Shown here in pieces: positions 6,923-64,000 of a stretch of 64,000 nt of DNA. The DNA is taken from contig JBAZMP010000002.1 in the NCBI GenBank assembly GCA_041649715.1, positions 196,964 through 260,963 on the forward strand, read 5' to 3'. The notes beneath the pieces are model-generated. The model was not told where the DNA came from, did not search any database, and saw nothing but the letters and a program-made list of their open reading frames with translations. Every line of letters starts with the position of its first letter. Position 1 is the stretch's first letter. Made by a program: the position numbers and the translations under genes. The stretch is from Patescibacteria group bacterium (lineage in GTDB: Bacteria > Patescibacteriota > Patescibacteriia > JAXHNJ01).

Positions 6923-8158
6923 ATGACACGTAATATACAATCTATTATGTCATATTTTCACCGGAAAATCCGCGATAGTTTTATTCCCCAGGAGCAAAAT
7001 GAATTTCGCCCCCATGTTTTAAGGCATAAATTTTTGGCTTTTATCGCCTCTTTGGTCATTGTGGTGAAAGTGGGCGTCCTGCTATTAGTTGCCTTGACTC
7101 CTGGTTATGTCTTGCCGGTTGATATTACCAACCAGAATATTGTCAATTTAACCAATCAGCAGCGATTAAATGCGGGTTTATCCGAGCTGAAGTTGAACAG
7201 CCGACTTTCTCAGGCGGCCTCTGCCAAGGCGGCTGACATGCTTTCAAACCAGTATTTTTCCCACTACAGTCCGTCTAATGTCTCGCCTTGGTACTGGTTT
7301 CAGAGCGCCGGCTACGAATACGCCTATGCCGGAGAAAATTTAGCCATGGATTTTGTCACCGCTGAATCTACGGTTAGCGCCTGGATGGCCAGCGAAAGCC
7401 ATAAGAAAAATATCCTGAATTCAAAATTTTCCGAGATCGGCGTCGGGGTGATTGAAGGAGATTTCAAAGGCGCTAAGACGATATTGGTCGTGCAGGAATT
7501 TGCCGCGCCGGCGCCGACGAAGACCGTCGCTTCCAATACGACCGTTACGGAAGTGACTAAGCCGGCCACCACTGAAACAAAACCGGTTCAACAGACCGTG
7601 ACACCGACCGTCGAGGCGGAAAAAAACTTGCCGAAAGTGGAAGCCGAAAAGACCGTTGTCCTGCCGTCACCGGCCAAAGAAGATACTTATGACGTGACCG
7701 TTAAGGTGGAGGAACCTCCGGCGGAAACTCCGCCTGCCGAGCCGCCAGCGGAGATCACGCAAGTGGCGGTTAATTTGGGCGGCAACACGGCAGATTTGAA
7801 TAAGACGGGCGATCAGTACGTCGGCTCGGTCGAGGAGAACCAGAACGGGCAGAAAAACGATTTAGATATATTGGTTCAAAGTACGCAGCCGACCACTGAC
7901 GAGAGCAATGTCATAACGGCCCCCGTCATGAATACGGATTTCTTTAAAACGACGATATTGCGGCCGGATAAATTTTTCACTTCCGAAAAATTGGTCCAGA
8001 TCATCTTATACTCCCGCAATTTTTTCCTGGCCCTGCTGCTTTTCCTGAGTCTTGCCCTTATCCTCAATGTTTTGATTAAAGTCCGCGTACAGCACCGGCC
8101 GACCATTGTTTACAGCCTGCTGGTCATCTATATGATCAGCGTGATTATCATAATTTAA
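6923..8158 (+). CDS. CAP/SCP (YkwD-like) domain protein with Pro/Thr/Glu-rich linker and C-terminal membrane anchor
   Basis: CAP-domain-like stretch NQQRLNAGL...YFSHYSPS...AWMASESHKKNIL. Then an ETPPAEPPAE low-complexity linker and a C-terminal hydrophobic helix. Confidence 0.7.
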   Translation: MTRNIQSIMSYFHRKIRDSFIPQEQNEFRPHVLRHKFLAFIASLVIVVKVGVLLLVALTPGYVLPVDITNQNIVNLTNQQRLNAGLSELKLNSRLSQAASAKAADMLSNQYFSHYSPSNVSPWYWFQSAGYEYAYAGENLAMDFVTAESTVSAWMASESHKKNILNSKFSEIGVGVIEGDFKGAKTILVVQEFAAPAPTKTVASNTTVTEVTKPATTETKPVQQTVTPTVEAEKNLPKVEAEKTVVLPSPAKEDTYDVTVKVEEPPAETPPAEPPAEITQVAVNLGGNTADLNKTGDQYVGSVEENQNGQKNDLDILVQSTQPTTDESNVITAPVMNTDFFKTTILRPDKFFTSEKLVQIILYSRNFFLALLLFLSLALILNVLIKVRVQHRPTIVYSLLVIYMISVIIII

Positions 8159-8461
8159 AGATTTGGGTATTCGCGCGCGCCCTCCCTTTTTTTGAGACAG
8201 GCGGTTTTTGCTTAGTCTTGATTTTATCGGCCTTCCAGACTACGGCCAGTGTGAAAATCGCGTGAAAATGTGACGGAGGGTTCGAATGAATCCCGCCAGG
8301 AAAATACTGAATAGCGGGGCGGAACTCAACATTTTGCCGCCTTAAGCCTTGATTTCAATCGGCGGAAGCCGTCGGCGCGCCCTTATTATCATCCTTGACG
8401 GTTCTTTTGTTTTTTGATAAATTTATAAGTAACTAATAAATAACATTAAGGAGAAAATACA

Positions 8462-9232
8462 ATGCCAGAAAACAGCGGCAAGAAAGAAGGAGGAGGAAAC
8501 AAGGGAATATTGGATGCCCCGCCTAAAACGACGTTTGTCATGGGAATTTTAGTCGGCGTGGTCGTTTGCGCCATTGTCGGCGTGGTTTTATCCCTGACCG
8601 TCGTGCAGACCAAGACTGCCTCAAATACCAATACTGTCGCGGGGGCGAACAGCAACAGTAATACCAATGCGGATGCGGTTGATCCGCGGGTCAGTGCGAC
8701 CAGTATCGCCCAATACGCCAGTGATTTGGGGTTGGATATCACTAAATTCAACTCCTGTATTAATGACGGTGAAAAAACGAAAACCGTCACTGACATGGCG
8801 ACCGCCGGTCAGGCCCTGGGAGTCCAGGGTACGCCCGCGACTTTTGTGAACGGTTATCTTGTGAGCGGTGCGATACCGTACGCGGATTTCAAGGCCATTG
8901 TTGACGAAGTGCTGGCCGGTAACGCGCCGACTTCCCAATACGCGGAAAAAACCGCGGTCGACGTGAAAGTGACTGAGGCCGACCATGTGGAAGGCGACGC
9001 CGGCGTTAAAGTGACACTGGTGGAATATTCGGATTTCCAGTGCCCCTATTGTTTGAATCACGCTTCGACCTTAAAACAAATTCTTGAAGAATATAGCGGC
9101 AAGGTTAAAATAATCTTCCGTCATTTTCCGCTTTCATTCCACGCCAACGCCCAGTTAGCGGCAGAGGCTTCAGAATGCGCCTCGGTTCAGGGAAAATTCT
9201 GGGAGATGCATGACAAGTTATTCGAACTCTAG
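8462..9232 (+). CDS. DsbA-like thiol:disulfide oxidoreductase, apparently circularly permuted, membrane anchored
   Basis: N-terminal TM anchor and Asn/Thr/Ser linker. The domain carries the DsbA C-terminal-type segment (YASDLGLDITKFNSCINDG...GVQGTPATFVNG) BEFORE the N-terminal-type CxxC segment (VTLVEYSDFQCPYC...GKFWEMHDKLF). Confidence 0.7.
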   Translation: MPENSGKKEGGGNKGILDAPPKTTFVMGILVGVVVCAIVGVVLSLTVVQTKTASNTNTVAGANSNSNTNADAVDPRVSATSIAQYASDLGLDITKFNSCINDGEKTKTVTDMATAGQALGVQGTPATFVNGYLVSGAIPYADFKAIVDEVLAGNAPTSQYAEKTAVDVKVTEADHVEGDAGVKVTLVEYSDFQCPYCLNHASTLKQILEEYSGKVKIIFRHFPLSFHANAQLAAEASECASVQGKFWEMHDKLFEL

Positions 9233-9247
9233 TCCGTTGTAAAAAAT

Positions 9248-10003
9248 ATGATACCTTATTTCTCCCTTGAGGAGATTGATATAGGTTTTGTAAAAATCCA
9301 AATTTGGGGCCTGATGTTCGCGTTAGGCCTCATTTTTGGTTTATGGCAGTTTTTCCGGGAAGCCAAGAAAATAAAGACAGAAAAAATCGTCTTTGATCTC
9401 GCTTTGGTCATTATTATCAGCGCCCTAGTCGGAGCAAGGGCGTATTTTGTCCTGAATGAATGGTCTTATTTTAGGGAAAACCTTTTAGATGTATTTAAGG
9501 TCTGGGAGGGCGGGCTGGGTTTTTACGGCGGATTGATTTTCGCCGTTACTTTCGGCTGGCTTTATTTAAAGAAAAAGGGGATCAAATTCTGGCTTGTCTC
9601 CGATATCATGGTTATTTCCCTGGCGCTTGGCGAGGCGATCACCAGGCTCGGCTGTTTTCTTATCCATGACCATTGGGGGAAAATAACGGCCCTGCCCTGG
9701 GGCATTGAATATCTCGGAGAGGTCAGGCACGAAACTTCTTTATATTCTTTTCTTAGTTCTTTAATTTTATTTATTATCCTCTTGATTCTGAGAAAAAAGT
9801 TCATTGGTCAGAAAGAAGGTTTTTTAACCGCTTTTTATCTGACCTGGTACGGTTTAATATCATTTTTTATTTATGGCCTAAGAGCGACGGATTTGCCGGG
9901 TTCGGACCCTTTTTGGGGAATTTTGAGACCGTCACAGTATTTTAGCTTACTATTGTTGGTCTTAGGCATAGTATTATTTGCAAAAAGGAATAGAAAAAAA
10001 TAA
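9248..10003 (+). CDS. lgt: prolipoprotein diacylglyceryl transferase
   Basis: Lgt signature GGLGFYGGLI and a polytopic layout. Confidence 0.85.
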   Translation: MIPYFSLEEIDIGFVKIQIWGLMFALGLIFGLWQFFREAKKIKTEKIVFDLALVIIISALVGARAYFVLNEWSYFRENLLDVFKVWEGGLGFYGGLIFAVTFGWLYLKKKGIKFWLVSDIMVISLALGEAITRLGCFLIHDHWGKITALPWGIEYLGEVRHETSLYSFLSSLILFIILLILRKKFIGQKEGFLTAFYLTWYGLISFFIYGLRATDLPGSDPFWGILRPSQYFSLLLLVLGIVLFAKRNRKK

Positions 10004-10048: not shown

Positions 10049-10170
10049 TGGTACCAGGGGTGGGGATCGAACTTCACCCCGCCTAGAAAGGCGGGGCAAG
10101 CGACCTCGGGCTTATGAGTCCCACGCTCTACTTCACCCCGCCCAACGGGGCGGGGCAAGCTGAGCTACCC
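10049..10170 (-). pseudogene. tRNA-Met-like partial duplicate (equivalent to tRNA positions ~5-76) disrupted by two GC-rich hairpin insertions
   Basis: Three segments (10049-10072, 10102-10131, 10160-10170) are identical to the tRNA-Met at 10420-10495. They are interrupted by ttcaccccgcc-tagaaa-ggcggggcaagc (10073-10101, in the T-stem 5' strand) and ttcaccccgccc-aac-gggcggggcaag (10132-10159, in the D-loop). The acceptor 5' strand is not conserved. Confidence 0.6.
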
Positions 10171-10412
10171 GTGGAAATAGAAATATATTTTTTATATTGA
10201 TTATTCTTTTTCTTTAACCAGATTTCGTGCCGGCGCGCTTCTTTGTAGCTATTATGTTCCTTTAGGTAAACTAACCGATAAGGTTTTTTCTTAGCGGTTA
10301 TTTTCAATTTACCTTGATTATGTTCCGATAGTCTTTTTTGCGGATGGCGAGAAATTCCGGTATAGTAACTCTTTTCCTTTATACTCTGAATAAGATATGT
10401 GTAGACTTTCAT
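10128..10412 (-). CDS. GIY-YIG nuclease family protein (UPF0213/YhbQ-like)
   Basis: KVYTYLIQS...YYTGISRHPQKRLSEHNQG fits the GIY-YIG motif. The last ~15 codons read into the tRNA-like fragment. It begins 8 nt from the tRNA-Met 3' end. Confidence 0.7.
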   Translation of the reverse strand: MKVYTYLIQSIKEKSYYTGISRHPQKRLSEHNQGKLKITAKKKPYRLVYLKEHNSYKEARRHEIWLKKKNNQYKKYISISTGSSACPAPLGGVK

Positions 10413-10419
10413 AAACCTA

Positions 10420-10495
10420 TGGTACCAGGGGTGGGGATCGAACCCACGACCTCGGGCTTATGAGTCCCACGCTCTACCAACTGAGCTACCCTGGC
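10420..10495 (-). tRNA. tRNA-Met (anticodon CAT; elongator-type features, could also be a lysidine-modified Ile2 type)
   Basis: Reverse complement is GCCAGGGTAGCTCAGTTGGTAGAGCGTGGGACTCATAAGCCCGAGGTCGTGGGTTCGATCCCCACCCCTGGTACCA. Cloverleaf folds with a CTCATAA loop, a C11-G24 pair and CCA encoded. Confidence 0.85.
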
Positions 10496-10496
10496 T

Positions 10497-10571
10497 TGGG
10501 TGCGGGGGTGGGATTTGCACCCACGACCTCCGGATTATGAGCCCGGCGAGCTGCTACTGCTCCACCCCGCG
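10497..10571 (-). tRNA. initiator tRNA-fMet (anticodon CAT)
   Basis: Reverse complement is CGCGGGGTGGAGCAGTAGCAGCTCGCCGGGCTCATAATCCGGAGGTCGTGGGTGCAAATCCCACCCCCGCACCA. It has the C1xA72 mismatch, an A11-T24 pair and G-C pairs at the base of the anticodon stem, all typical of bacterial initiators. It sits 1 nt from tRNA-Met. Confidence 0.8.
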
Positions 10572-59028: not shown

Positions 59029-62000
59029 ATGGGCAGAGGAGGCAAAAAAAATATTTATCTTGGTATCCTCGCGGTCGTTTTTTTGTCGGTCGGCGGTTTT
59101 TTTGTCTGCGCTCATTTAGCCTCCGCCCAGACGGCGTTGCAGTTAGAAGATGTCGGTGGCACCCTTGGCTTGACGACCGTAAACTTAAAGACCCTGGTCA
59201 TTAATATTATCAGATGGTTTTTAGGCATTATCAGCCTGGTGGCGGTGGCTTATCTTATCTACGGCGGAATTTTGTGGCTGACCTCGGCGGGCAACGAAGA
59301 AAAGATCAAAAAAGCGAAAAAGACAATATTAAACGCCATTATCGGTGTAATCATTGTGTTGCTGTCCTGGGCGATTTTTTTGCTGGTCACTCATTTTATC
59401 ACCGACGCGACTAACGGGAATGGAAATCAGGCCTGCACGCCCCCGGCCCATACCGCGGATGATTGTTATGTCTGTCAAGGATCGCCGCCGGTTTGGGTGC
59501 CCAACGGCAGTCCGGCCAATCCCGCCCTTTGCTTGGCTTTTCCCACGGATTTTAGGCTGAACGACATAGAAACCAGCGCTATTTCCGACCTCTCGGAAAT
59601 TTATACCTGCAGCAATATCCAATCGCGGTTCAATAACGGCGTCTACGGTACCTCGGTCGATAGCGCGGTGACGGCCGATACTTTAAAGATCGAGAAAGTC
59701 GATGGTTCAGTGAAAAAGGAAGGAGCCTGGCAGACTAACGCCAGGACGGTTACCTTCTATCCCAGGCGATGCTCGAATCCGCCCAATGATCCCTGCCGGT
59801 ACGACGCCGATTGCGGCGGCGGCAATACCTGCGATGTGGTCTACTTTGACGATCTTTCCGATTACAGGCTGCATCTGCCAAAAAGCATTCAGGATGTGTC
59901 GGCCCCCGTCAGGAAGAATCTTTCAAGTTTTGATACTCTTGTTCTTGGCCCATGGTGCCAAGACGCCGGAACAGAAATCCAGTGCACTTTTCATACCAGT
60001 GATCAGAAGGATATTGCCGAACCCATCCTGGTGAGCGCTTATCCCGTATTATCAACCCAAGCTGGTTATCCCGACACAAACGTGCCGCGGCTACCGACCA
60101 TTTCCGTGCTTTTTTCCGAAAATGTTGACGCCGGCACCGTGGTCGATTCAGTTAACCCGTCTTTGCCTAACAGCAATAATATTTTCATACAGCAATACGA
60201 CGCCCAAAACGGAAGCCTAAAAGTAGGCGGCGCGGTCGACTCAAATTCGGATGGGACCGTCGACCCGGACAAGTTAAGGGTGGGCGAAGCAGCTAATGGC
60301 TTTAATCTTTTCCTCCAGGGCGGTTATTTCGAAGCTTTTACCTGGTATAAAATAACGGTCCAAAATATTGAGGATCTTTGCGGTAACACCATGACGCCGG
60401 CCTCGGTCGAATGGTGGTTTGAAACCAACGATGTCGTGCCCGGCTTTACCGGATTTTATCCCACCGGCAACAATGAATGTCCGGACGTCCATGCTTGGGC
60501 GACTTTTGGCACGGCCATGTACATGTATGACGTGACTTTAACGATCAACGATATTTCTGCTGGGCCCAAAGACGCGCCACGAGTCATCGGTATAAACGGC
60601 AGCACGACCACAACGGGGAGCGCAAGCAACTATGCCGGTACCTTGACCATTCGGGATTTTAACGAGAGTACGCCGGCCAACGGCAACAAATGGTATGAGT
60701 TTGTTCCAGCCACGCCATTTTCTCCCAGCCATACCTACGCGGCGACGATCGCGACCAATCTGGTCATTGATACGTCTGGCGGCACGCTTGCTACTGCTTG
60801 GCAATTTAAGGTGGCGACCGCCGCCGATTGCACCTGTACCCCCGCTATCGCTTCCTTGAGCCCGGCCCCATCGGCCGGCCTGATCGGCGAATGCCTGACC
60901 ATCAACGGCAGCTGTTTTACCGGTACCGCTGCCCACGCGGCGACACCGATAAATTTGACTTTTGGCAGCTTAACAGCTGATATTCAGGGTTTTGGAAACA
61001 ATTTTATTACCACCATCTCGCCTGATCCGCGTCCCGTCACTTTTCCCAATACCGTGGCCATTAAATTTTCTATTGATTACGGCGCGACTTACGGCGTGCA
61101 AAACACGGCCGCCGGCTATAACTATACCTATAATAGCGACAAGGAAGCCACCGGCCCCTGTCTTTTTTCTATTTCGCCAAGCGTGACCTATCCGGGCACG
61201 GCCGTCACTTTAACCGGAATCCGGTTTAACCCGGCCAACCCGGCGACGAGAAGAATTGACTTCATTCCGCCTGGATTGTCGCCCTCCATTTCTTCTTGGT
61301 CAGACGGACAAATATACAGTTCGGTTCCAAGCACCTCCTTTAGCGGGACCAGCAACGCTAGCCTCACTAATGATATCGGTACTTCAAATAGCGTTCCTTT
61401 TACAATCAATCAGTACCCGCCTGGCGTGCCGGTAGTCACCCGGTATTGGCCGACTTGCGATTCGGCCTGCACCAACGCGGTGGCCGGGGCCACGTTCAGT
61501 GAAGAGATGGACAGGAATACGATGACGACCGCTAATATCAAATTAGACCATTGCACAGATATTGATTGTAATGATTTTGTTATGCCGGCTCCCGTATATT
61601 CCGTAAGTTATGATATCCCGGGCAAGACATTAACCATCATTCCTTCCGCTAACATGTTGCCTGACAGTTGGTATAAAGTGACCCTGCTCGAGGGAATCAA
61701 GAGCACGGCAAACGTGAGCATCGGCAATCCTAATGATGGAACCAGTTTTATTTGGAAATATAAAACTAAGAATGACGCCTCATTGTGCGCCCCGGCTTCA
61801 GTGGATGTCTCGCCGGCGACTTACACGGCGAAGATCAATCAGACTGATCTGCCATATACGGCCTATGCTAAAGGTTCGCCGGACAGCTGTAATGCCGGCG
61901 GTCAGATATTAAACGGCAATGCCTATGACTGGTCTTGGACCAGTTTGCCGTTGGGTTTGGCCAATGTCAGCAATACCGACAGCAATGGCGACGGCAATGT

Positions 62001-64000
62001 AGATTCTGCTCAAAGGGTTGCCACTCTGGGAAATCCGGGCGCGACCAATATATTCGCTTCAGTCGGCAGCTTAAACAATCGTGGTGTTTTAAATATTACA
62101 GTCGATCCGACCTATTGTTATGCCGACGCGGATTGCAACCCGCAACCGGCGAATCCTTGTCCGGGCAGTGTCTGCAGGGACAATCATTGCACGCCGGTGA
62201 TAAATTCCTTTTTACCCACGGACGGCGCCGTCGGCACCTGGGTGACGATTAACGGCTGTTGGTTCGGCAATTTCGAGGATGGTAAAAGCAAGGTATTATT
62301 TAGAGGTATTGGCGGCGATAAAGAGGGGATTGTTCCCAATCCGATGATTTGCGGTCCGGGTACCTGGACAAATACCCGGATTGTCCGCGAGTCCCCAAAC
62401 GCTTCGACCGCCGACCTTGCGGATGACGCGATTGACGGGTCGATAAAGGTCGTGCGGGGTTTTGATTCGGCGGAAGTGAGCACAGCCACTAATTTTGACG
62501 TAAACAATCTTTCTCATCCCGGCATTTGCTATGTCAATCCGGAAAGCGGCCGCGAAGGCATCACGGAGGTGCAGATTAGGGGCAAAAATTTCGGGACCAG
62601 CAAGCAATCCACCGATCATGTCACTTTTTATAATTCAGTCGGCCGGATTGAAGCGGATTATACGCCGGCCATTTGGGAAGATAATAATATCAGGGTTATC
62701 GTGCCGGTCGGCGCTCAGACTTCCTTAAACGAGGGCCTTAAAATTACGAAGGGTGCGATTGACAGCAATCCTTGGCCTTTTACCGTAGCGGCCGCCGACT
62801 GTACGCCTTGTACCGCCGACAGCGAGTGCGCGGCGCGCGCCTGCGGAGCGGATAAATGCTGTCATGATCGTCCGAGCGTCGCTTCTACCACGCCGTTGGA
62901 CGGCGCGACCAATGTCTGTTTGAATACGGTGATCGAGGTCCGTTTTAACCAAGATATGGATGTTGCTACTTTCACGCCTGGAAATATCACTGTTATGCGT
63001 TCCGGGCCACCGGCCGGACCCGTGCCCGTGAATTCACAAAATATCACCGCTGGCAGCCGTTGGTTGCGCCTGAACTTTGGTCTTTTGGCGGGTAATAACC
63101 AATACGTTATCAGGTTAGCCGCGGGCATCAAAAACGCGCAAGGAATCGCGATGGGCGGTGATTATCAATTCGGATTCACCACGGCCAATACTTCCGATCC
63201 CTGCCAGCTTTCTCGGATTACGATTGATCCGACTGTTCATACTTTTATGAAGTCTGATCCGGCAAAAGAATTTTCCGCTCAAGCCTACGATAATAATAAT
63301 AACCAAATAAATCGAATCCCCGGGGTTTATAGCTGGACGTGGTCTTGGTCAGTCGCCGACAGCAGTATTCTTGTCTTGAATGCCCCAGGTGATTCTGATA
63401 CGGTCAACGCTCAGCCCGCTGCTCCCCGGAAAAATGGCAACACTACTTTAAAAGTCGAAGCTAAGGCCCTAGACCCAGTGATTGGTTTCACTGGCAGCAA
63501 AGAGGCGACAGCGGCGGTGCGCGTGATCAATTGTGATGTGGCCTGGACTTTTACCGACCAGGCAAATAATTGCGAAAGTGACGTAATTTTTGGCGGATGC
63601 GGCAATAGCTATAATTTCCGCTTAGAATATTGTCGCGGTCTATACGGTCTATGCCAAGGCGGTTCAGCCGCGGATGTTTGTTCCGCCAATTACGCCGCCA
63701 CTTGTCCGACGGGAGAGACTTGTTGTCCAGCCGCGACTCCGAATTGTACTTTTACTAATAATAAGCCCTTGCCCTTTTTTGACATTCAGACGGCGAGCGG
63801 CCAGACCGGGAACGTTTTGAAACAGTTTCTTTTCAAGGAATCAGATGACACGAAGAAAGACGGCATCGGAGTGCGCATTTTTGCCAATCCCGAACTGCTT
63901 TCCCCGACCGCCTGGTATGATATTAATATTAAGATAAAAGGTTCGCCGCAGACGACGACCGTTGATGGATATGAGGCGATCAGAGACGGCCGGACCGTTT
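59029..64000 (+). CDS. giant surface protein (more than 1650 aa, 3' end outside window): N-terminal two-TM pilin-like segment plus Cys-rich IPT/TIG-like repeats
   Basis: Frame-1 ORF from ATG 59029 (MGRGGKKNIYLGILAVVFLS...). No listed ORF occupies this frame to the window end, consistent with a frame that has no stop and is therefore not listed. Two hydrophobic helices flank LTSAGNEEKIKKAKK. Later repeats resemble IPT/TIG (ISPSVTYPGTAVTLTGIRFNP; INSFLPTDGAVGTWVTINGCWFG). Confidence 0.6.
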   Translation, partial: MGRGGKKNIYLGILAVVFLSVGGFFVCAHLASAQTALQLEDVGGTLGLTTVNLKTLVINIIRWFLGIISLVAVAYLIYGGILWLTSAGNEEKIKKAKKTILNAIIGVIIVLLSWAIFLLVTHFITDATNGNGNQACTPPAHTADDCYVCQGSPPVWVPNGSPANPALCLAFPTDFRLNDIETSAISDLSEIYTCSNIQSRFNNGVYGTSVDSAVTADTLKIEKVDGSVKKEGAWQTNARTVTFYPRRCSNPPNDPCRYDADCGGGNTCDVVYFDDLSDYRLHLPKSIQDVSAPVRKNLSSFDTLVLGPWCQDAGTEIQCTFHTSDQKDIAEPILVSAYPVLSTQAGYPDTNVPRLPTISVLFSENVDAGTVVDSVNPSLPNSNNIFIQQYDAQNGSLKVGGAVDSNSDGTVDPDKLRVGEAANGFNLFLQGGYFEAFTWYKITVQNIEDLCGNTMTPASVEWWFETNDVVPGFTGFYPTGNNECPDVHAWATFGTAMYMYDVTLTINDISAGPKDAPRVIGINGSTTTTGSASNYAGTLTIRDFNESTPANGNKWYEFVPATPFSPSHTYAATIATNLVIDTSGGTLATAWQFKVATAADCTCTPAIASLSPAPSAGLIGECLTINGSCFTGTAAHAATPINLTFGSLTADIQGFGNNFITTISPDPRPVTFPNTVAIKFSIDYGATYGVQNTAAGYNYTYNSDKEATGPCLFSISPSVTYPGTAVTLTGIRFNPANPATRRIDFIPPGLSPSISSWSDGQIYSSVPSTSFSGTSNASLTNDIGTSNSVPFTINQYPPGVPVVTRYWPTCDSACTNAVAGATFSEEMDRNTMTTANIKLDHCTDIDCNDFVMPAPVYSVSYDIPGKTLTIIPSANMLPDSWYKVTLLEGIKSTANVSIGNPNDGTSFIWKYKTKNDASLCAPASVDVSPATYTAKINQTDLPYTAYAKGSPDSCNAGGQILNGNAYDWSWTSLPLGLANVSNTDSNGDGNVDSAQRVATLGNPGATNIFASVGSLNNRGVLNITVDPTYCYADADCNPQPANPCPGSVCRDNHCTPVINSFLPTDGAVGTWVTINGCWFGNFEDGKSKVLFRGIGGDKEGIVPNPMICGPGTWTNTRIVRESPNASTADLADDAIDGSIKVVRGFDSAEVSTATNFDVNNLSHPGICYVNPESGREGITEVQIRGKNFGTSKQSTDHVTFYNSVGRIEADYTPAIWEDNNIRVIVPVGAQTSLNEGLKITKGAIDSNPWPFTVAAADCTPCTADSECAARACGADKCCHDRPSVASTTPLDGATNVCLNTVIEVRFNQDMDVATFTPGNITVMRSGPPAGPVPVNSQNITAGSRWLRLNFGLLAGNNQYVIRLAAGIKNAQGIAMGGDYQFGFTTANTSDPCQLSRITIDPTVHTFMKSDPAKEFSAQAYDNNNNQINRIPGVYSWTWSWSVADSSILVLNAPGDSDTVNAQPAAPRKNGNTTLKVEAKALDPVIGFTGSKEATAAVRVINCDVAWTFTDQANNCESDVIFGGCGNSYNFRLEYCRGLYGLCQGGSAADVCSANYAATCPTGETCCPAATPNCTFTNNKPLPFFDIQTASGQTGNVLKQFLFKESDDTKKDGIGVRIFANPELLSPTAWYDINIKIKGSPQTTTVDGYEAIRDGRTV

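Follow-up and report, generated by a model that had tools for sequence, protein, structure and literature searches.

A naturally reordered dsbA gene 5' of lgt in a Patescibacteria genome and its probable origin by circular permutation

An analysis was conducted of a 64,000 nt stretch of the Patescibacteria group bacterium assembly GCA_041649715.1 (contig JBAZMP010000002.1, positions 196,964 to 260,963), the whole of which is referred to here as the window. The open reading frame (ORF) at 8462 to 9232 encodes a DsbA-type thioredoxin-fold protein in which the two halves of the domain stand in the opposite order to that usual for the family. For both oxidative protein folding and engineered circular permutation, DsbA serves as a textbook model. 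Segment A denotes the normally N-terminal half of the DsbA domain and segment B the normally C-terminal half; P- and L-numbers are the protein clusters and genomic loci of this analysis. Related Patescibacteria have a canonical gene, here called dsbA#2, next to lgt. The features of the window gene are as follows.

8448 to 8453, + strand: Shine-Dalgarno-like AAGGAG, 8 nt 5' of the ATG, read from the sequence
8462 to 9232, + strand: permuted dsbA coding sequence, 256 aa and stop, ATG start, complete, identical to database protein P0001
8462 to 8527, + strand: residues 1-22, short Lys-rich N-terminal tail, from the sequence, homologous to the N-terminus of canonical dsbA#2
8528 to 8602, + strand: residues 23-47, single hydrophobic membrane anchor TTFVMGILVGVVVCAIVGVVLSLTV, kept in all family members
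8603 to 8683, + strand: residues 48-74, Asn/Thr/Ser-rich low-complexity tether, predicted local distance difference test (pLDDT) <50, variable in the family alignment
8684 to 8917, + strand: residues 75-152, segment B with helices a4, a5 and a6, strands b4 and b5 and helix a7 (Pfam DSBA and AlphaFold2 model)
8828 to 8836, + strand: G123-T124-P125, cis-Pro loop motif facing the active site, in 13 of 13 family members and 37 of 37 permuted proteins
8918 to 8983, + strand: residues 153-174, 22-residue linker between a7, which held the former C-terminus, and the former N-terminal region (rotated alignment; pLDDT 96-98)
8984 to 9229, + strand: residues 175-256, segment A with b1, b2, active-site helix a1, b3, a2 and a3 (Pfam Thioredoxin_4 and AlphaFold2 model)
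9041 to 9052, + strand: C194-P-Y-C197, redox-active CXXC at the start of helix a1 (sequence; AlphaFold2 helix from 195)

The protein ends two residues past the KLF of helix a3, its stop codon lies at 9230-9232, and 15 nt separate this from the ATG of lgt at 9248. A hydropathy heuristic gives one transmembrane (TM) segment, and the anchor shares PPKxxFxMGILVG with that of canonical dsbA#2. By the positive-inside rule the Lys-rich tail would be cytoplasmic. The adjoining lgt prompted a reading of the anchor as that of a lipoprotein, which was rejected: no lipobox-type small residue stands before its Cys36 (VVVC), which is Ser in P0008 and P0011. The sequence is thus in favour of a plain membrane anchor.

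The order of the halves is evident from several kinds of comparison. The Pfam profiles DSBA (PF01323) and Thioredoxin_4 (PF13462) each match the protein as two stretches. Profile positions 124-187 of the 191 in DSBA fall on residues 81-144, with 71.8 bits against a gathering threshold of 25.6, and positions 3-87 of the 165 in Thioredoxin_4 fall on residues 172-254, with 91.3 bits against a threshold of 23.2. A phmmer search of PDB sequences gives a two-piece, order-swapped alignment to the Corynebacterium diphtheriae DsbA/TsdA (4PWP/7UNN). BLASTP of the separate halves, over 120 homologs, shows that in canonical proteins B follows A after a gap of only 5-10 residues. The NCBIfam model NF041057 (Rcas_1661 family thioredoxin-like (seleno)lipoprotein) scores 110.3 bits, below its cut-off of 190, with the match confined to residues 162-255.

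For global alignment, three canonical relatives were rotated in silico to the order anchor and tether, B, pre-A and A. The window protein aligns with these end to end, anchor and tether included, over 243-254 columns at 48-52% identity, and the alignment score is 567-627 in the rotated order as opposed to 227-279 in the native one. The linker at residues 153-174 matches the segment that precedes strand b1 in the canonical proteins, and its P156 is invariant. The two swapped segments, each homologous to its counterpart in the parent, jointly span the whole parent domain, and by sequence comparison no part of the DsbA fold is absent. The canonical chain order, b1-b2-a1-b3-(a2 to a6)-b4-b5-a7, is replaced by a4-a5-a6-b4-b5-a7-linker-b1-b2-a1-b3-a2-a3. 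The protein is a DsbA/Thioredoxin_4 member by every testable criterion except chain order, and its homology is beyond doubt.

An AlphaFold2 model of the monomer, built on 13 permuted homologs aligned with 55 tandem A-B-A-B ones, has a pLDDT of 96-98 over residues 80-250. Its elements in segment B are helices at 79-88, 93-101 and 106-118, strands at 126-129 and 132-135, and a helix at 140-151; those in segment A are strands at 175-177 and 184-190, a helix at 195-210, a strand at 215-221, and helices at 230-241 and 246-255. As a control, the canonical ortholog P0079 was modelled from 63 canonical sequences, giving the order b1 b2 a1 b3 a2 a3 a4 a5 a6 b4 b5 a7. All 12 of these elements recur in the model of the window protein, with their order cyclically rotated. 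The model thus predicts a rebuilt thioredoxin core and helical cap, in which the old termini are joined and the new termini lie in the a3/a4 loop: on the predicted structure, this is a thioredoxin core with an inserted helical domain, and the same fold with new ends. The GTP motif directly precedes the strand at 126-129, so that, at the level of the motif, the model has the Thr/Val-cisPro loop of the fold.

A Foldseek search of the PDB with this model gives a single match with E <= 1e-3, namely 1UN2 (E 9.9e-6, 191 columns, target-normalised TM-score 0.65), while the natural DsbA, BdbD and ScsC structures align over only about 86-90 columns. With the P0079 control, natural DsbA, BdbD and ScsC structures are covered over 165-190 columns, there are 207 matches with E <= 1e-3, and 1UN2 is outside the best 50 of them. 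In PMC2395249, 1UN2 appears among engineered permutants, with E. coli DsbA (1A2J) as the parent and the cut at residue 100. The initial annotation had proposed from the letters alone that the C-terminal DsbA segment comes first and the N-terminal segment last, giving a circularly permuted DsbA-type thioredoxin fold. Pfam, phmmer and BLASTP agree on this order and on the homology of the first segment to the C-terminal region of DsbA and of the second to the N-terminal region. The compact, high-confidence model and its best match to an engineered permutant bear out the fold, and the quoted segments, the NAPTSQY...TEAD linker, the KLFEL end and the adjoining lgt are all as described.

Of the known relatives, the engineered permutant, cpDsbA_Q100T99, appears from the predicted structure to be the closest analogue in connectivity. 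It is said to go back to the random circular permutation study by Hennecke, Sebbel & Glockshuber (1999). It too has its old termini joined, its new termini in the a3/a4 loop of the helical domain and its thioredoxin core contiguous in sequence. The window protein was aligned with the E. coli DsbA sequence, the numbering of which was consistent at C30, C33, P151, T99 and Q100. Against it, the C-terminus of the window protein (LFEL) falls at about L92-G95, with the end at about E94/G95, and the start of segment B (RVSATSI) at about T101-I108, with its first residues at about T101-R103. These two positions flank the engineered T99/Q100 cut, and all are in the a3/a4 loop. The differences are that cpDsbA_Q100T99 is a laboratory design and the window protein is natural, with 18% identity between them; that the former is an enterobacterial DsbA and the latter belongs to the Thioredoxin_4/BdbD-like branch; that the window protein, unlike cpDsbA_Q100T99, is membrane-anchored via its new N-terminus; and that its linker consists of 22 residues from a native pre-domain segment rather than GGGTG.

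The canonical dsbA#2 proteins (P0079, P0119, P0052), whose structural relatives are B. subtilis BdbD (3EU3/3EU4) and C. diphtheriae DsbA (4PWP), share with the window protein the anchor motif, the tether, the place 5' of lgt, a CPYC or CPFC active site, the GTP cis-Pro motif and the KFWEMHDKLF helix. They differ in having the halves in the opposite order, so that the tether enters b1 in the canonical proteins and a4 in the window protein, and the chain ends with a7 in the former and with a3 of the helical domain in the latter.

The window protein is one of a family of 14 clusters at 90% identity with the order anchor, B, linker, A (P0001-5, P0008, P0009, P0011, P0014, P0018, P0023, P0024, P0027 and P0225), drawn from NCBI, JGI, ENA and Logan assemblies. 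P0225 is the only member added by the search of a library of representatives, the matches of which were mostly multi-domain arrays. The clusters fall into three subclades with 52-85% identity to the window protein, and their proteins terminate within a few residues of the KLF in helix a3. In an alignment of 13 members, which are about 50% identical to each other, G123, T124, P125 and C194 never vary, and C197 is kept in at least 90%. In one subclade, P0011 and P0225 have CPYS in place of CPYC; such a monothiol site cannot form the active-site disulfide. Between the window gene (P0001) and its ortholog at L005 (P0002) the Nei-Gojobori ratio of nonsynonymous to synonymous substitution (dN/dS) is 0.09, with 0.10 for segment B, 0.06 for segment A and 0.10 for the linker. 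Taken together, these comparisons show the permuted family to be conserved across its subclades and, as judged from its codons, under purifying selection.

The genes on either side of the window gene, given below, allow it to be placed among its relatives.

6923 to 8158, + strand: CAP/SCP-domain membrane protein, upstream neighbour (Pfam CAP, 66.8 bits; same neighbour in L001, L003 and L005)
9248 to 10003, + strand: lgt, prolipoprotein diacylglyceryl transferase, downstream neighbour (Pfam LGT, 184 bits; synteny in L003, L004, L005, L006 and L007)

In genomes with the permuted type the order is ferredoxin (Fer4), CAP-domain protein, permuted dsbA, lgt, and in L001 and the window lgt is followed by a methyltransferase gene, parA and parB. 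Related Patescibacteria with canonical enzymes have ferredoxin (Fer4), dsbA#1, dsbA#2 and lgt, with parA and parB further on (L006, L007). The CAP/SCP-domain protein, of about 400 aa, lies between the ferredoxin gene and the permuted dsbA in the window as well as at L001 (3511-4722), L003 (3676-4908) and L005 (3699-4910), in the slot that dsbA#1 holds in L006 and L007; the permuted form thus occurs where dsbA#1 has been lost or replaced. A fusion of the neighbouring paralogues, with B from dsbA#1 and A from dsbA#2, was considered and rejected. The halves of the window protein are 59-60% (A) and 47-61% (B) identical to dsbA#2 and 48-49% (A) and 31-35% (B) identical to dsbA#1, and the anchor is also closest to that of dsbA#2. 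The gene is therefore no chimera, and these comparisons show it to be the ortholog of the canonical lgt-adjacent dsbA#2 of related Patescibacteria.

Neighbour-joining (NJ) trees were made from the separately aligned and the concatenated halves, in data sets of 176 and 478 units. With 176 units the window family is monophyletic in 92 of 100 bootstraps, and it is nested among canonical Patescibacteria proteins, outside the tandem-array domains. The wider family (Myxococcota, DPANN archaea and others) is rich in tandem A-B-A-B proteins and in arrays longer than these. They too contain the B-to-A junction within one chain, and for this reason the window protein aligns continuously with them over about 70% of its length; they differ in keeping complete flanking halves, with two to four full domains or more. 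Intermediates of this type are needed by the model of permutation by duplication. The A-B-A-B proteins known from databases are nevertheless not supported as direct ancestors, as the canonical single-domain proteins of Patescibacteria are nearer, and none of the tandem arrays, nor an A-B-A gene, is sister to the window family in the NJ trees. This A-B-A gene, P0086 (L091, 1083-1979), encodes a complete signal peptide-A-B-linker-A protein with a stop after the a3 helix (LLFTTP*), in the same loop. It has no downstream remnant of B and lies on a single 2.1-kb metagenome contig. Its architecture is what a half-way intermediate in permutation by duplication should have. At the other extreme, 3-4 tandem DsbA domains per ORF are seen in the Myxococcota loci L010, L013, L015, L017, L018 and L023, among others, P0121 (1163 aa) has ten matched stretches, which may mean about 5 domains, and two multi-domain arrays lie side by side in L047, L054 and L061.

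At least five further B-A genes are present among the GTDB species representatives, at L008 (Levyibacteriota), L020 (labelled Saccharibacteria), L044 (Dehalococcoidia), and L009 and L028, for which the labels of the metagenome-assembled genomes (MAGs) are doubtful. L020 belongs to a second permuted family (P0269, P0273 ... P0332) of 18 members, made up of L020 and 17 clusters from a protein search that are 51-62% identical to the L020 query. This family and the singletons L008, L009, L028 and L044 have the same anchor-B-linker-A order and break loop and keep the GTP motif. The second family differs in its anchor, in the subtype of its A half and in its Peptidase_C39 and type IV secretion system (T4SS) pilin neighbours. 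Across the 37 B-A proteins examined, the break is always in the same a3/a4 loop and the GTP motif is always retained, and the CXXC is intact in 34, the exceptions being P0011 and P0225 (CPYS) and P0290, which has a disrupted site. The latter, a member of the second family, has CPFW and an apparent deletion of several residues, which may be a sequencing error or mark an inactivated copy.

The second family groups with the window family in 0 of 50 bootstraps, whether A, B or A+B is used. The mean Kimura distance between the two is 0.97, with the nearest canonical proteins at 0.56 from the window family and 0.43 from the second, and the nearest neighbours of the four singletons are non-permuted. 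As neither the second family nor the singletons ever group with the window family, a recurrent origin is suggested, at least two independent permutations of DsbA being likely; these NJ trees cover about 160 columns and are not decisive. It is possible, at slightly less than even odds, that the a3/a4 loop is a natural hot spot. Membrane-anchored dsbA genes would then have been permuted several times independently, in at least two families of Patescibacteria and possibly also in Levyibacteriota and the Dehalococcoidia MAG, by way of A-B-A(-B) intermediates of which examples are extant. In the clade of the window the permuted enzyme would have replaced the canonical lgt-linked DsbA, and a shift of the tether's attachment, away from the thioredoxin core and onto the helical cap, may be what was selected.

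The gene very probably encodes a functional, naturally circularly permuted thiol:disulfide oxidoreductase of the DsbA/BdbD type. The Lys-rich tail and single hydrophobic segment would form an N-in, C-out anchor, which with the flexible Asn/Thr-rich tether would hold the catalytic domain on the outside of the cytoplasmic membrane, an arrangement shared with Gram-positive enzymes of the BdbD/MdbA type. In the rebuilt domain the CPYC at the N-terminus of a1 would face the Thr-cisPro loop. The enzyme most likely takes part in disulfide exchange with exported proteins, probably on the oxidizing side, and it may be re-oxidized by a membrane quinone-linked partner encoded elsewhere. The permutation would leave the thioredoxin core contiguous in sequence and divide the helical cap between the chain ends; it would also move the attachment of the tether from b1 to a4, and the half that otherwise emerges last in export would come out first. 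As to its origin, the gene descends from the canonical anchor-A-B dsbA next to lgt. The likely path, which agrees with the classic scheme of permutation by duplication, is an internal duplication giving A-B-A or A-B-A-B, after which the first A was deleted in frame and the final B was lost as well.

Several points weigh against this account. The fold of the window protein is a prediction, and the alignment behind it consists mostly of tandem A-B-A-B proteins. CPYC alone does not tell an oxidase from an isomerase or reductase, and a crude screen of the 64-kb window for multi-TM proteins with CXXC, in which only one giant ORF matched, found no VKOR- or DsbB-like partner. The dS is already high (1.15) in the closest pair, P0001 and P0002, and the remaining pairs are saturated at synonymous sites. 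The monophyly of the window family is recovered in only 34 of 50 bootstraps in the 478-unit set, and the A half alone leaves the family unresolved. The tandem proteins are phylogenetically farther from the window protein than the single-domain canonical ones, and no direct A-B-A(-B) intermediate was found in the window lineage, so that duplication is a route that we infer.

Other explanations of the reversed order differ widely in their probability. The source is a MAG, and the initial annotation had itself raised a frameshift or assembly join in 8700-9000; the same architecture and conserved neighbours are seen, however, in the 14 clusters, from independent samples, assemblies and assemblers, and there is no GC break and no meaningful repeat at the junctions within 8100-9400. 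An assembly or sequencing artefact, whether a chimeric join or a frameshift in the MAG, is therefore excluded for all practical purposes. The orthologs with the same order that had been called for thus exist. It had also been suggested that the gene could be the remnant of a tandem duplication, and a B-A order is indeed what would be left of an A-B-A-B protein, a common type, truncated at both ends. This stands as the likely historical route. That the gene is a non-functional remnant, a pseudogene in decay, is effectively ruled out: it has an undamaged start codon, Shine-Dalgarno sequence and stop codon, its catalytic residues are invariant in the family, every element of the fold is there, dN/dS is about 0.09, and neither the window nor nine other permuted loci have a piece of A or B left behind beside the permuted dsbA.

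Pairing of the halves between chains, with the B of one associating with the A of another in a domain-swapped dimer or oligomer on the membrane, is very unlikely. A B-A chain could in principle complement in trans, the AlphaFold2 model covers the monomer only, and the ScsC-type relatives in the PDB are oligomeric by their description lines. Against this, the 22-residue linker is conserved, with its invariant P156 and high pLDDT, the monomer model matches the monomeric 1UN2 over 191 columns, and the engineered Q100T99 permutant, with a linker of only 5 residues, is reported to be a folded, active monomer (Manjasetty et al. 2004). There is a somewhat greater, though still small, chance that the fold is as proposed and that the protein is a reductase, an isomerase or a specialised factor (in copper or lipoprotein handling, for example), like ScsC or DsbC. 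The active site is CPYC and not CPHC, the ScsC-type proteins 4GXZ, 6NEN and 4XVW are among the closest solved relatives by sequence, the two CPYS members are without an active-site disulfide, and a fusion of CcdA/DsbD_TM and thioredoxin, a reducing-pathway protein, follows lgt in one subclade. On the other hand, the best sequence matches are to Gram-positive oxidases (C. diphtheriae DsbA/TsdA and B. subtilis BdbD), and the protein has a membrane anchor only, without the N-terminal dimerisation or trimerisation domain of DsbC or ScsC. The fusion gene of that subclade (L003, 5834-8343; L004, 923-3432) is accompanied by an AhpC/Redoxin gene after lgt, and in these two loci the fusion, the AhpC/Redoxin gene and the permuted dsbA make up a small envelope redox cluster.

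As a functional permuted oxidoreductase, the window family is the conserved natural counterpart of a DsbA permutant that had been engineered and crystallised. In the full-text literature, of which the coverage is incomplete and does not extend to the supplements of the 2026 permutation survey CIRPIN, no natural permuted DsbA is described; it has only DsbA permutants made by engineering, together with broad comments on the permutability of thioredoxin-like folds. The canonical orthologs at the same locus, the tandem-array relatives and the possible A-B-A intermediate provide an unusually complete natural test case of permutation by duplication, in a membrane-tethered, exported enzyme. If the hot spot is real, evolution would repeatedly have come to a chain order already known to be viable from random circular permutation experiments (cpDsbA_Q100T99), and if the recurrence in the same loop holds, it is a natural read-out of the chain breaks that the DsbA fold tolerates. 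The question is raised of whether function is affected by the attachment point of the tether or by the order in which the halves leave the translocon. For annotation, domain tools label the permuted proteins merely 'DsbA/thioredoxin domain-containing', and sequential searches by structure or sequence cover just half of them. As a natural circular permutation of a model enzyme, the case is clean, conserved and possibly recurrent; it is relevant to specialists in protein evolution and Dsb systems, and it does not challenge current understanding.

The remaining observations concern the surroundings of the gene. The spacer of about 300 nt between the CAP/SCP-domain gene and the permuted dsbA (8159-8461) has no match in Rfam or ARAGORN; a T-loop-like GGTTCGAATGAATCC is present in it at about 8280-8294. 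Between lgt and the methyltransferase gene, a small ORF with a GIY-YIG domain (10128-10412, - strand) adjoins two tandem tRNA-Met (CAT) genes (10420-10571, - strand). A very long ORF, of more than 1650 aa, begins at 59029 on the + strand and continues past the end of the window at 64000.

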